A stretch of DNA of 62,057 bases, counting the filler, from Dugesia japonica (Eukaryota), in the NCBI GenBank assembly GCA_001938525.1. It is 6 parts of 6 records of this genome, joined end to end, with 100 filler letters (N's around TTAATTAATTAA, not from the genome) between each part and the next. Parts side by side here need not be neighbours in the genome. Positions count along the whole stretch, not along the records: positions 42,746 to 52,302 come from MQRL01265772.1; 5 more parts are not named here. One strand, written 5' to 3'. Of this stretch, positions 42,746-52,402 are shown one piece after another (positions within the stretch are counted from its first letter, which is position 1; each line of letters starts with the position of its first letter). The position numbers and the translations under genes were made by a program. Under the pieces are notes generated by a model, which had not been told where the DNA came from, did not search any database, and saw only the letters and a list, made by a program, of their open reading frames with translations.

Positions 42746-42897
42746 TCTTTAATATAATACAGATCATTTTCAAAATCTTTAATTCTAGATAATGACAATT
42801 TATTTTTTAAATCTTGAATTGTATAGCTATCATCTCTAAATGCGCTATGCTGACCGTTGGAAAGACTAGGATAAATATTAATATTATCAGGATCCAT
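42746..42897 (-). CDS. Gap-truncated Polinton ORF with an N-terminal 'IYPSL' (resembles the adintovirus 'gasdermin-X'-like membrane protein)
   Basis: 'MDPDNINIYPSLS...LSRIKDFENDL' follows the recurrent 'LYPxL...RLxxIxxxxxxL' start of these ORFs; only ~50 aa are visible. Confidence 0.4.
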
Positions 42898-42922
42898 CTA
42901 TTTCTTAAGTATAAAATTTGTT

Positions 42923-44707
42923 TTATTTTTTATTCTCAAATATTCTAAAACTATCAACAAAACGTTTTGTTTTTTCAAATTCTATAACAGTATCCGATTT
43001 AATAATTACATGTTTCATTTTAAATTTATTTACAAAAATTATTTCAATGTAATTTATTTTAGTTTCTTTGGTTTCATAATAAATTTTAATATTTCCGGAT
43101 TCAGGTGTAACATGATCCATTGTTATTGCAATATTATTAATTTTAATTATATAAAGAAATTTTACAATATCACAGTAACCTTCAATATAAATATGAACTT
43201 TTTCATTAATATTTGTATGTAAAATAATAGAATTTTTTTTAAAAATAAAACCAGTAACAAAACTATTTATATGAAATTTATCAGAAAACAGTGTTAATAT
43301 TGTATTGTTATCTGTTGAATCATATGGAATATAATTATCAAACATTTCTCTTAAAGCTTTAAAATTATAGGTTTTAAAATAAACATTTATTCTGTCATCA
43401 TGTATTTTATGAAACTTTAATTTTTTATATTCTTCTTTTAATTTTTCAAGCATATCTAATTTATTTAAATTAACACTTATTTCCTTTAAATAAATATTTT
43501 CAGGTAAAATTATTACAATATATTTTATATTTTCATCTTTATTAATTTCACTACTTTCACGATAAATATTAATATCCCTGGATTCAGGTTTTACATATGA
43601 AAATGTCACTGCAATATGATTAATTCTAATGACATATTTAAACTTTTTATCACATTTACCAGTAATACTTATACCAATTTTTTCATTTACTTTTGTATGT
43701 AAATGAATTTCTAAAGGTTGATTAAAACTAAACATTCCAGAGTGAAAATAAATAGTTAAACCTTTATTTTTTAAATTAAAGTCATTAACATATTTATCTA
43801 TAAGAGAATAACAAGGGGATTTATAAAAGAAAATTGAAAATATTTTATATTTACTTTCTATGTATAAATAAGCTATTTTAGTATCAATTAATTCTCTTAA
43901 ATCTTTAAGTGATGAATCAGAAAATGTTTCTTTATATTTTTTAAATGTAAGATTAACTTTATTAGAATATATTTTATGTTGTGCTCCAATTGATTTAATT
44001 TCATTAGTTAATTTTAAATTTATAGGTTTAAATTTTTCAATATAAATTTTAAGATTATCAATGGAAATAATAAAAATATCAAATGTTTTCTTGTTGATAT
44101 TATCATGTAAAATATTAATTCTTTTATATAAAGTTTCAATTTCTTTTTTAATTTTCAATGAATCAAGCGTATCTAATTCTTTTATTTTAATTAGTAGATC
44201 AGTTTTTTTAAATGGAAACAGTTCAAGTTTTAGAATTTTAATTTCAGTATTTATTTTATCAAATGTTTCTTGATTACAGTTTTTTGTTAATTTTTGAATT
44301 TTATTATTTAAACTTGAAATATCAACATTTAAGACTTTTAATTCAGAAATTTTAGATTCTAAATATAATTTATTTGCTGTAAATTCATCAACTTTTAATA
44401 ATCTATTGAAAATTATTTCATGTCTATCTAATTTTTCTTCAAGAGACTTTATATATTTTAAATTAGCTTCTTCAAGAGATTTAATATATTTTAAATTAAC
44501 TGCATCTTGTGATTTAATATATTTTAAATTAACTGCGTCTTCTGGATCATTGGGGTCATCTTTTATTTTTAAGGATGTTATCGAATCACCTGTTTCATTT
44601 ACAAATTTATTTTCAGCTTGCGCTTCTGACATTTTAATTTTAGCATCAACATTTTTTAATAATTGTGATGAATTAAAAGAACTACCAGTAGCTCCAAACT
44701 TATTCAT
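42923..44707 (-). CDS. Putative virion fiber/spike protein, 594 aa
   Basis: N-terminal 'MNKFG', 'FVNETGDSI' and three 'DAVNLKYIKS'-type repeats, then a long coiled coil and two tandem copies of a ~80-aa beta-rich domain. Confidence 0.5.
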   Translation of the reverse strand: MNKFGATGSSFNSSQLLKNVDAKIKMSEAQAENKFVNETGDSITSLKIKDDPNDPEDAVNLKYIKSQDAVNLKYIKSLEEANLKYIKSLEEKLDRHEIIFNRLLKVDEFTANKLYLESKISELKVLNVDISSLNNKIQKLTKNCNQETFDKINTEIKILKLELFPFKKTDLLIKIKELDTLDSLKIKKEIETLYKRINILHDNINKKTFDIFIISIDNLKIYIEKFKPINLKLTNEIKSIGAQHKIYSNKVNLTFKKYKETFSDSSLKDLRELIDTKIAYLYIESKYKIFSIFFYKSPCYSLIDKYVNDFNLKNKGLTIYFHSGMFSFNQPLEIHLHTKVNEKIGISITGKCDKKFKYVIRINHIAVTFSYVKPESRDINIYRESSEINKDENIKYIVIILPENIYLKEISVNLNKLDMLEKLKEEYKKLKFHKIHDDRINVYFKTYNFKALREMFDNYIPYDSTDNNTILTLFSDKFHINSFVTGFIFKKNSIILHTNINEKVHIYIEGYCDIVKFLYIIKINNIAITMDHVTPESGNIKIYYETKETKINYIEIIFVNKFKMKHVIIKSDTVIEFEKTKRFVDSFRIFENKK

Positions 44708-50800: not shown

Positions 50801-52261
50801 AAGAAATTTTATAAATTCATTAACTACATTTTCACCTGTAGAATAATAATATTTACATGGAATTATGTCTGGTAGATCAGATTTTATATAAATTCCGAGA
50901 CTTATTGGTTCTTGAGTATTATCATTTTTAGTGTAACATTCAAAATCACAATAGATTACAATTGGAATTTTATTTTTAAAATAATAATTTTGAAACTTAA
51001 AATATTCTTGATATGGAAATTTAACATTTATTGATTTATGATGAATACATTCTTCTTGATGTTTAATTAAAACTTCTTTAGATGAATAAACATTCATACA
51101 ACCTAGACATAATTTATAACCTTTTTTTATATTAAATAAAGAATGCACATTTCTCACAAGAATAAAATGGCTTTTATAAATTAATAAGTTGCATTTATTT
51201 TCTTCTGATTCTGGATTTACTGCGAAATGTTTAATACGAATTGGTATAAGTTTTTCTTCTTTATCTAATTCGAAAACATTTATTTTGTAATCATTTTGTT
51301 TCTCGAAGATCTTTATATCACCGAGTTCAGCTGGAAAATTCATTCCTTGGATATTTAATTCTGAGAGATGTTGGATATAATTATTTACACGTGTTGGATT
51401 ATTATAAATATGTTTATGTGCAAGGATTGAGTATAGTAGACATTTATCATCTTTGTTTTCAATATTAATAATTCCTTTTTTATTCATTTTTTCTGGTAAT
51501 TCCATATATGTAAAAGCGCCAGCTTTACATCTTGAACCATATTTTTGTAATTGTAATCTGTAAGAATATATATGAGTCATGGTATAACCAGATGCGGCTA
51601 GTTCACGATTTCGCATATAATTTTCTAGTCTTAGATATGTTTTATTTAATTTTTCAGATATTGTTGCTTTTGTGTAAATTCTTATATTTGGTACGTAAGA
51701 ATAAATTATAGTTGTTCTATCTTCTTTTATATAATAACATGAAACACCTAGTTTCAAATAGAATTTATATCCTAATGTGAAAAACTTTCTAACAATTGCT
51801 TCTATTTCAGGATGAAGCAATTCAGTTGTAGATAATTCTAGTTCATCTACTTTTTTTTCCATTTTTAATCTACTATTTAAATAAACATCGATATAATAGA
51901 AATCTGGATATGTTTCATAATTAAACACTTCTTCGATACGTCTTGGTCTTGATGGCCAATTTTTATCTATTTTCTTTTGTAATAACAAATGTCGTTTGTT
52001 GGTTCGTTTATGTTCGTTGATTAATTCTAGATTATCAAAATGTCTATCGCAGAGATCGCAATATAATTCTATTCTTCCACATGGAGTTTTTTTCAAGTGA
52101 ATATTTAAACCAAATTCTGTTCTAAAATGTTTTTTACAAACTGGACATGTTTTATAATCTTCTTGTTCTATATTTTCACATTTTTTAGATTCTTTATGCG
52201 AATTTAGCCCACGTTTATTTCTAAATGTTTTATTACAATTATAACACTTAAATAAAGACGT
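47873..52261 (-). CDS. Protein-primed DNA polymerase B precursor with N-terminal zinc fingers, vOTU-like domain, degenerate HNH/EndoVII-like insert and an intein
   Basis: ExoI 'IYCDFE', ExoII 'FHNAMGYD', 'RFLDSF', 'FPYDY', ExoIII 'YYMKLDV', motif A 'YLDANSLY', motif B 'KDMNNSFYGK', motif C 'YSD...TDS' (split), 'KSYAY', 'KHKGV'. The frame stays open 55 codons upstream of the called TTG, to an ACG at 52261. Confidence 0.95.
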   Translation of the reverse strand, partial: TSLFKCYNCNKTFRNKRGLNSHKESKKCENIEQEDYKTCPVCKKHFRTEFGLNIHLKKTPCGRIELYCDLCDRHFDNLELINEHKRTNKRHLLLQKKIDKNWPSRPRRIEEVFNYETYPDFYYIDVYLNSRLKMEKKVDELELSTTELLHPEIEAIVRKFFTLGYKFYLKLGVSCYYIKEDRTTIIYSYVPNIRIYTKATISEKLNKTYLRLENYMRNRELAASGYTMTHIYSYRLQLQKYGSRCKAGAFTYMELPEKMNKKGIINIENKDDKCLLYSILAHKHIYNNPTRVNNYIQHLSELNIQGMNFPAELGDIKIFEKQNDYKINVFELDKEEKLIPIRIKHFAVNPESEENKCNLLIYKSHFILVRNVHSLFNIKKGYKLCLGCMNVYSSKEVLIKHQEECIHHKSINVKFPYQEYFKFQNYYFKNKIPIVIYCDFECYTKNDNTQEPISLGIYIKSDLPDIIPCKYYYSTGENVVNEFIKFLDNINITINNLEKAYTGNLPVFIQNSKCYYCEKSILKDPVFDYNYLTQESQGYIHKECKPQNLFIPLYFHNAMGYDNHLFFRQLICNKPEKVKNIIPHSDDEYIAFNYGYIRFLDSFKICKTSVEKMGETLSKSGNHEILDFYKLKPKKVSFPYDYIKGNNPEEITKLLKSKKIPDKQDFFSKLRQKGISDNEYEEFLNDILKLKNLWNYMLYYMKLDVFILADYVENFRKICLDFYKIDPCYCYTASGLTWQAGMRFTQVKLKFAKANTYNTFLKFERGVRGGYSGEEGERQVFSHDNNKNPYTRELNQADFEDLIEMMKSGQEINVDNIMQDRHIKYLDANSLYASCMTKPLPTGEFIECNELTYEPSSETMNYLYEVDLEYPREIHDRTKYFPLAPERLLITEDMLSNYQKSFKLNLTKDNIKLTMNQFNKKNYIILGSTLDLYLQLGMKLIKIHSKYLLPTTTWLKDYIDFNITQRTLAKRNKVEFGVSFFKDMNNSFYGKTLENIRNRCNVHIVGTDEDFQNLVAKPTYLSSKTFKTEPGIMSKIAAVHMTKTKLNYNKFPYLGFTILEYAKEVMYNFVYNQLEPKIGQDNYKIHYSDSVTSDTPVILKIDNKVFIKKISEIATLASGQINQNYTKNMYDSKFYSYPENFEIWTKSNWVPLKKVIKHKTNKKIYRITTKLGIVDVTEDHSLLDSTGKEIKPTDLTLNTKLLHNKFKPIISLNNKLRNVILNKTIKDKMSLAKSYYLGTSLGLNLIITGDFKLEECDTEIPINVQSIRFLRESLEDVYDIETQDGTFNCGFPLIIKNTDSVFLEILGNDNLEILNSLTGDNLFQMKDELPNSEILKCVFIKPKSYAYEYQTQDKHSLTKKHKGVQSFNPIGMSDFDSILKDRKKIIYGTNYSLKSELHVIKLTSQKKIALTGYSDKRIIEDNATRTWPHGNQCICEKCTKPEDEIWHLRLDLINQTTPCPVR
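48371..48994 (-). mobile_element. Mini-intein (208 aa, Hint domain) at the PolB motif-C (Pol-c) site
   Basis: N-extein ..HYSD | block A SVTSDTPVILK; block B VDVTEDHSLL (TxxH); block F DVYDIETQDGTF; block G FPLIIKN | C-extein TDSVFLE. Removing it restores YSDTDS. Confidence 0.95.
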
Positions 52262-52402
52262 TTATTATTTTTACACTCTTTTTTATTATAAAAAATTTAA
52301 TCNNNNNNNNNNNNNNNNNNNNNNNNNNNNNNNNNNNNNNNNNNNNTTAATTAATTAANNNNNNNNNNNNNNNNNNNNNNNNNNNNNNNNNNNNNNNNNN
52401 NN

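Follow-up and report, generated by a model that had tools for sequence, protein, structure and literature searches.

The stretch of DNA analysed here (the window, 62,057 nucleotides (nt) of the Dugesia japonica assembly GCA_001938525.1) consists of six pieces of 8-17 kb, one of which, at positions 42746 to 52302 (9,557 nt), is the longest N-free stretch in the window and carries a compact block of virus-like genes. Judged from its sequence, this block represents part of a Polinton (Maverick/adintovirus) of the Beta type, a class set here by divergence from PF03175, and its DNA polymerase is interrupted in catalytic motif C by an intein. The intein is the most unusual feature of the block, and it was absent from the initial annotation of this DNA. 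The best explanation overall, which we regard as probable, is that the block is one arm of a resident Beta-type Polinton, bearing the polymerase and virion accessory genes, and that its intein came from a giant-virus family B DNA polymerase (PolB) and spread by homing. The broader proposition, that a splicing-competent intein sits in an animal nuclear genome by way of an integrated Polinton, and belongs to an undescribed lineage that arose from giant-virus PolB and homed among copies and between the Alpha and Beta classes, stands at about an even chance.

The intein occupies positions 48371 to 48994 on the minus strand (208 amino acids (aa); residues 1090-1297 of the polymerase frame) and interrupts motif C of the polymerase without a frameshift, after the first Asp and before the TDS. 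This is the pol-c allele site, D|TDS, known from the PolB of Mimivirus and of archaea (PMC549080). The insert scores 35.3 bits on the TIGR01445 profile (cut-off 24.5) and falls under the gathering cut-off of the Pfam family PF14890. Ser1, Thr88, His91, Asp190 and Asn208 are common to 98-100% of the aligned relatives. The insert presents what we take to be blocks A (Ser), B (TxxH) and F (Asp), together with the terminal Asn and a +1 residue that is Thr. It ends in Lys-Asn, with Lys and not His in the penultimate position, as do 104 of the 111 parsed inteins, the query included. About 135-140 residues with LAGLIDADG motifs are absent relative to the intein of the carrier P0001; with the LAGLIDADG endonuclease deleted, the 208-aa insert is a mini-intein. 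In a sequence search of the PDB its sole match is the Nanoarchaeum split-polymerase intein NEQ068 (E 0.003), and a tblastn search of phages gave no match. The insert retains the canonical splicing residues and is predicted to be self-splicing. The possibility that it represents an intron was rejected, since it is in frame, matches a Hint profile and involves no need for splicing.

A sequence search with the intein recovered 1,193 relatives (E<=1e-3), the proteins that carry them ranging from 730 to 2,326 aa. Among the best 120, 114 reside in PF00136-type (RNA-primed) PolB, probably of giant viruses, and 6 in Polinton-type polymerases. The six Polinton-type carriers (P0001, P0009, P0016, P0023, P0026 and P0034) all hold full-length inteins of 337-350 aa, and LAGLIDADG nuclease domains were matched in all four that were scanned (P0001, P0016, P0023 and P0034). 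None of the 150 exteins nearest to that of the block contains the intein: 133 have an empty site and 17 stop short of it. In an extein tree built from 73 of 153 rows, the six intein-bearing Beta rows fall into one 12-row clade, among five alleles verified as empty and a single truncated row, and the starred branches of the tree require at least three changes of intein state. The empty P0140 and the full P0023, for example, are 83% identical over the columns of this tree. Intein trees were inferred from 114 rows (7 of the 120 matches were dropped because of unparsed ends) and then from 57 rows minus one long branch. In these trees the block intein is sister to that of P0001 (support 99/97), with 70% identity over 122 splicing-domain columns; the P0001 extein is of the PF03175 class and aligns to the N-extein of the block at 37 bits only.

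The polymerase cluster of P0016 comprises 136 members from ENA records, on contigs of 57 kb to 1.0 Mb among the members listed. Of the 15 members listed, 7 are full, 6 are empty and 2 are uninformative, and the informative N-exteins are 95-99.5% identical. Compared with P0016, the empty alleles are changed at 8-9 of the 20 residues that flank the site, against 1-5% elsewhere (Fisher p 5e-6 to 1e-10, for copies that are not independent of each other), while all five full alleles tested show 0 of 20 flanking differences. Among P0016 and P0121-P0134, the differences between empty and full alleles trail about 45 aa into the C-extein. On these alignments, the pattern in the family is as expected from co-conversion during homing, or from target sites resistant to it.

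The polymerase that hosts the intein extends from 47873 to 52261 on the minus strand, as a frame of 1,462 aa from stop to stop, with its first AUG at 51862, from which 1,329 aa would be translated. Its domains follow the order C2H2 fingers, putative terminal-protein (TP) region, OTU-type (vOTU) protease, exonuclease (EXO) with a degenerate EndoVII/HNH-like insert, and palm. The exteins retain motifs that we presume to be the vOTU Cys/His pair, ExoI-III, and polymerase A and B. Among 1.84 billion representative sequences, 11,646 relatives of the N-extein were found at E<=1e-3, the best 150 of which are 29-47% identical. The TP-vOTU-EXO-PALM order is the layout described for Polinton polymerases in PMC11071308, and the block polymerase shares it, its terminal-protein domain being assigned by position. 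No match of the N-extein to PF03175 was obtained at E<=0.01; this fits the divergent Beta class of PMC8502044, where the PolB of Beta adintoviruses is described as diverging from the pfam03175 (Alpha) type. A PDB search with the PolB profile gave no relevant match. In a scan of GTDB, 12 loci were detected at 22-36% identity, and the intein was found in none of the 11 examined; these loci are apparently mis-binned Polinton-like contigs. Three of the contigs (L006, L009 and L010; 13-19 kb, in bacterial metagenome-assembled records) combine PolB and a packaging ATPase, L009 and L010 adding integrase and capsid-like ORFs (open reading frames), and are probably mis-binned eukaryotic viruses. Of 150 relatives, 90 keep an intact version of the EndoVII/HNH-like insert, which in the block polymerase (residues 514-544, at about 50630-50722 on the minus strand) is degenerate.

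The polymerase frame opens with 133 codons (51863 to 52261, minus strand) for an N-terminal C2H2 zinc-finger segment, in frame with the remainder. A C2H2 finger occurs within the first 25 aa of 15 of the 131 long relatives that start with Met, and the segment is therefore probably part of the polymerase. An acceptor-like AG sits at the first finger. The start of the segment could be accounted for by a non-AUG codon, a spliced 5' exon located in the gap, a sequencing error or a lesion.

The block contains six ORFs, all on the minus strand and without stops, which cover 96.7% of the piece; besides the polymerase frame, they measure 594, 145, 240, 460 and 189 aa. In 300 dinucleotide-block shuffles of the block the longest chance frame averaged 91 aa and never exceeded 143 aa; chance ORFs were rejected as the source of the frames on the basis of this maximum. 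The extent of open frame claimed in the initial annotation is thereby upheld, as are its short spacers (37, 27 and 36 nt, next to an overlap of 41 nt) and its 8-nt overlap of the protease and presumed fiber genes (44700-44707). Its designation of a virion-gene block is not confirmed, given that 46% of the block (4.4 of 9.6 kb) is DNA polymerase. The qualification of the block as pristine and intronless holds in part: the frames are indeed stop-free, but there is no AUG before the fingers, a 5' exon is possible and an intein is present. The adintovirus-like identity that it proposed is borne out by the Polinton-type polymerase, together with a penton fold and a maturation protease, on which the Polinton/adintovirus assignment is based.

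The penton, a single jelly roll of 240 aa, is encoded at 45174 to 45896 (minus strand). Its AlphaFold model, built from 9 sequences, reaches a pLDDT of 78.7, and the top Foldseek match is the mavirus penton (E 4e-8). The fold resembles the pentons of mavirus, Sputnik and adenovirus (Z 14.4, rmsd 2.4 A over 133 residues; VIA), and the Atlas clusters retrieved include Preplasmiviricota (0.98), so that the modelled fold confirms this ORF as a penton. The Adenain/Ulp1-like maturation cysteine protease (145 aa; 44700 to 45137, minus strand) shows what we presume to be its catalytic motifs at His67-70, Asp79-83 and Gln/Cys103-111. It weakly matches an ORF adjoining the capsid-like gene of L010 (tblastn E 2e-4), and a PDB sequence search gave no match. 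ORF594 (42923 to 44707, minus strand) combines N-terminal short repeats, a coiled-coil-like middle and two tandem C-terminal domains, whose coding sequences (43021-43223 and 43505-43703) are 70% identical; three 33-nt repeats were noted at 44435-44533. Neither Pfam nor PHROGs nor Atlas gave a significant match for the ORF (best Atlas score 0.78, uninformative), which leaves the fiber designation of the initial annotation without support from these collections; by its architecture only, the protein can be called fibre-like. ORF460 (45924 to 47306, minus strand) has no family match above cut-off, and its C-terminal helix motif presumably resembles that of a conserved Maverick accessory protein, a candidate label. 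ORF189 (47266 to 47835, minus strand) likewise matches no family above cut-off and contains an EGG/F-led hydrophobic stretch; we take it as a putative pX/core- or membrane-active-like protein, after the core proteins of Polintons and adenoviruses. At 53232-53336 (plus strand), between the ATPase and integrase relics described below, an ORF of 34 codons has a hydrophobic stretch, EGF/L-led and similar to the ORF189 motif, and may encode a pX-like core peptide. PHROGs matched none of the six block proteins, no paralogues of them were detected elsewhere in the window by tblastn, and PolB, penton and ORF594 have no exact-sequence entry in the protein collection searched. Rfam gave no match in the window.

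The six pieces of the window are separated by five identical linkers of 100 nt, starting at 8782, 25545, 33803, 42646 and 52303, unlike the gaps of variable size that the window also contains. Those on the left (42646 to 42745; N44-TTAATTAATTAA-N44, with a six-frame-stop 12-mer as its core) and on the right of the block (52303 to 52402) are artificial, and the order of the pieces may be artificial as well. Among the papers listed for the 12-mer, nothing dealt with assembly practice. No terminal inverted repeat (TIR) was detected in the block, both ends of which are assembly breaks; a contig bounded by linkers and devoid of a visible TIR had already been described.

Decayed Polinton relics are found beyond these linkers. 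Directly across the right one lies the decayed 3' part of a packaging ATPase (52403 to 52679, plus strand), in which 52455-52658 matches ATPase-like ORFs in both L006 and L010 at E 2e-8. It is followed by an rve integrase relic with four in-frame stops (53388 to 54239, plus strand; E 1.6e-8 to L010, PF00665 E 4.6e-5), which ends at 54239, cut by a repeat resembling a long terminal repeat (LTR) element. A major-capsid-like relic with stops and frameshifts (80 to 1345, minus strand) lies 41 kb and four linkers away from the block. It shows a weak PF21738 double-jelly-roll match (E 0.0057), under the curated cut-off, and no match either to the capsid-like ORF of L010 or in a PDB search. Because no block protein has a paralogue in the window, sequence does not tie these relics to the block. 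In composition, the block has 24.6% GC versus 26-31% in the other pieces, and the GC content at third codon positions (GC3) of its ORFs is 0.08-0.19 versus 0.13-0.17 in the decayed Polinton relics of two other pieces. This likeness to relics in two pieces, including the neighbour just beyond the right linker, implies that such elements entered the genome before, and relics of like GC3 show that AT-rich Polintons are resident in the assembly.

The state of conservation of the block can be set against that of its neighbours. Nonsense mutations make up 6.2% of point changes, and the 0 stops in 9,270 coding nt therefore limit neutral drift to at most about 0.5% per site, assuming a single copy and ignoring indels. 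Under the same single-copy assumption, the absence of nonsense codons supports recent selection on the frames. The integrase relic, with 4 stops in 852 nt, implies about 7.6% drift, and equal decay of the two has a probability of 5e-5. Unless the contig of the block is itself collapsed, the ATPase, integrase and capsid relics are thus probably older relatives from other insertions. As the initial annotation had noted, the other mobile elements are damaged: all seven regions examined (three Ty3/gypsy-like, one R2/NeSL-like and three Polinton relics) carry stops in all frames, the longest open run being 343 aa.

Several observations weigh against the explanation preferred here. Mimiviridae are named for only 1 of the 114 PF00136-type matches; in an unrooted tree, the branch that sets the Polinton inteins apart has a support of only 79/74, and the data do not reject a Beta-only intein clade (p-AU 0.264). 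Folding the intein from its single sequence gave an unusable model (pLDDT 33), and no AUG precedes the zinc-finger segment in frame. Virus-host junction, TIR and target-site duplication (TSD) are all unseen in the block, the linkers give no evidence of adjacency, and an intact major capsid protein (MCP), ATPase or integrase is missing from it. Finally, the placement of the host leans on one gene, PSMB7, which sits on a long branch.

This gene (18115 to 19072, plus strand; three introns of 43-45 nt) is the only host marker detected in the window. Its score is 211 bits against mammalian PSMB7, higher than against the listed beta-2 chains other than PSMB7/PSMB10, which reach 173 bits at most. Of its 1,471 matches, the best 120 bear species names of animals only, with 54-61% identity, and in a tree of 35 rows it groups with trematodes and cestodes (98/93). 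By sequence, the host is best read as an invertebrate, probably a flatworm. A vertebrate-type or bacterial source of the PSMB7 piece was rejected in view of the short introns, the AT-rich composition and the animal-type gene.

The rival explanations are not mutually exclusive. The one that survives best, which we hold to be possible and still distinctly less probable than the preferred explanation, is that the apparent integrity of the block is an assembly effect, many similar damaged copies of a resident family having collapsed into a majority contig that broke where the repeat ends. None of the individual copies would then have to be intact or young. It is favoured by the absence from the block of all 27 non-linker N-runs of the window, where about 5 would be expected (P 0.007, post hoc), by its abrupt ending in linkers on both sides, by the 39- and 136-member clusters that related polymerases form on long contigs, and by the degraded state of 96% of vertebrate Mavericks (PMC8097293). 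Even so, a collapse requires high mutual identity among the copies, hence a family that is still young, and the intein result stands even if the contig is collapsed.

Two further alternatives are each unlikely, to a similar degree. According to the first, the source of the contig is a virus in free or episomal form, or a co-sequenced organism (host, prey or protist), and the scaffolder or concatenation placed it among host pieces. The unsized 100-nt linkers on both sides and the lack of a junction agree with this, as do the environmental-source adintovirus contigs reported from animal datasets (Starrett et al., PMC8502044) and the fact that most relatives of the intein are of a type known from protist viruses; the GC and GC3 match to decayed Polinton relics in two other pieces argues against it. 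According to the second, the block is a recently integrated and already dead copy, in which the missing initiator is the first lesion and the frames are open through little elapsed time. While the 15 fingered relatives start with Met just before their fingers and the EndoVII-like motif is degenerate here, the downstream AUG would still yield a protein with all catalytic domains, many relatives do without fingers, and the acceptor-like AG offers a spliced start.

Somewhat less likely again is a common insertion of the block with the ATPase and integrase beyond the right linker, which would make it a half-decayed element. These genes begin at the linker, are head-to-head with the polymerase and are exactly those that the block lacks, but the disparity in stops between the two fits a common insertion only if the block is a collapsed contig. 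That the insert is a dead, non-splicing relic in an inactive polymerase is very improbable, since, against the low Pfam score and the penultimate Lys, the other catalytic positions are conserved, the Lys-Asn end is typical of the parsed inteins, and the exteins retain motifs A and B and the exonuclease motifs.

Under the preferred explanation of a resident Beta-type Polinton arm, the block would have been under coding selection until very recently, or would still be, the rest of the element having been lost at assembly breaks. The polymerase would be translated as an intein precursor, from which the intein would excise itself by an acyl shift at Ser1, transfer to the +1 Thr and cyclisation of Asn, restoring motif C. 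The vOTU domain would then free the terminal protein, and the polymerase would replicate the linear genome by protein priming. The penton, protease and fibre-like proteins would serve a particle together with an MCP and an ATPase encoded outside the assembled sequence. A giant-virus PolB in a co-infected cell was most likely the source from which Polintons acquired the intein, which would have spread among Polinton copies and lineages through endonuclease homing; in the lineage of the block it would have become fixed and then lost its nuclease. We propose that it persists because only a precise loss leaves an active polymerase.

The remaining mobile DNA of the window is composed of decayed elements. 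A non-LTR retrotransposon at 21416-24039 (minus strand) encodes a reverse transcriptase (RT; PF00078) and a C-terminal restriction-like endonuclease motif, its GC of 38-40% being above that of its surroundings; we take it to be R2/NeSL-like. Ty3/gypsy-like elements lie at 13203-17259 (minus), 27324-31400 (minus), 54239-57300 (plus) and 38314-39154; the segment that truncates the integrase relic (54239-55071) is 77% identical to the last of them. RT fragments at 12109-12935 and 38087-38323 (both plus), one of them followed by a GIY-YIG-like motif, are presumably Penelope-like relics. Fragments at 32818-33310 (minus) read like what we take to be an Ulp1-type protease domain, possibly from a DNA transposon.

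An intact Maverick fragment is by itself routine, with 134 intact elements reported in vertebrates (PMC8097293); the intein is what stands out. A 2018 review states that inteins are absent in multicellular organisms (PMC5874633), and a 2026 preprint that they occur everywhere except in metazoan nuclear genomes (10.64898/2026.09.14.751524). If the integration is true, the block would be an exception to this absence. The suggestion that nuclease inserts in Polinton polymerases "result from intein invasions" (PMC11071308), an idea not met in the available passages of PMC12220804, PMC3671162 and PMC13768754 and with no matching passage in those of PMC4760082, would likewise gain its first direct support. 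No report of an intein in a Polinton polymerase was found by title or abstract start, with supplements, subscription journals, RepBase and InBase outside the search, and the word is absent from the main text of PMC10748475 and PMC8502044. The polymorphism of full and empty alleles in the P0016 family provides a natural system for measuring homing and co-conversion within a single eukaryotic genome. The shared pol-c allele links Polintons to giant viruses and bears on the co-infection of Mavericks with giant viruses or their dependence on them. If the broader proposition of an intein in an animal nuclear genome is correct, it would constitute genetic evidence that giant viruses and animal-type Polintons have shared cells, and a route for inteins into animal germlines.

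Compared with known systems, the block is closest in its general organization to the Beta adintoviruses and Polinton-Mavericks described in PMC8502044 and PMC8097293, which likewise display a compact, intronless-looking array, an OTU-bearing PolB, a penton, an adenain-like protease and an invertebrate host. The rve integrase and packaging ATPase of adintoviruses are found beside the block only as neighbouring relics, and, unlike adintoviruses, the assembled piece is devoid of TIR, TSD and intact MCP, ATPase and integrase, its polymerase motif C holds an intein, and the nearest polymerases are just 29-47% identical. Virus-borne inteins on nuclear scaffolds, as that of the block may be, are known from viral DNA polymerases that became endogenous in algae and a labyrinthulomycete (PMC10710043), which are non-animal hosts, with no Polinton among the cases described in the passages available. 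Those of invertebrate iridoviruses (PMC4149023) occur in viruses of animal cells, which in the available account are free large DNA viruses and not Polintons. With the pol-c inteins of Mimivirus and archaea (PMC549080), the block intein shares the D|TDS site, the first Ser and last Asn, the +1 Thr and the B and F blocks; it differs from them in residing in a protein-primed Polinton polymerase, in having YSD and not YGD as its flank, and in the deletion of its endonuclease. Lastly, the pPolB2 polymerases of nematodes, oomycetes and molluscs (PMC10748475; PMC11071308) also harbour inserts of selfish nucleases, comparable to the degenerate EndoVII/HNH-like insert present here. In the passages available, those inserts are HNH or VSR nucleases with no Hint domain reported, whereas the block polymerase carries a Hint element within the catalytic motif.

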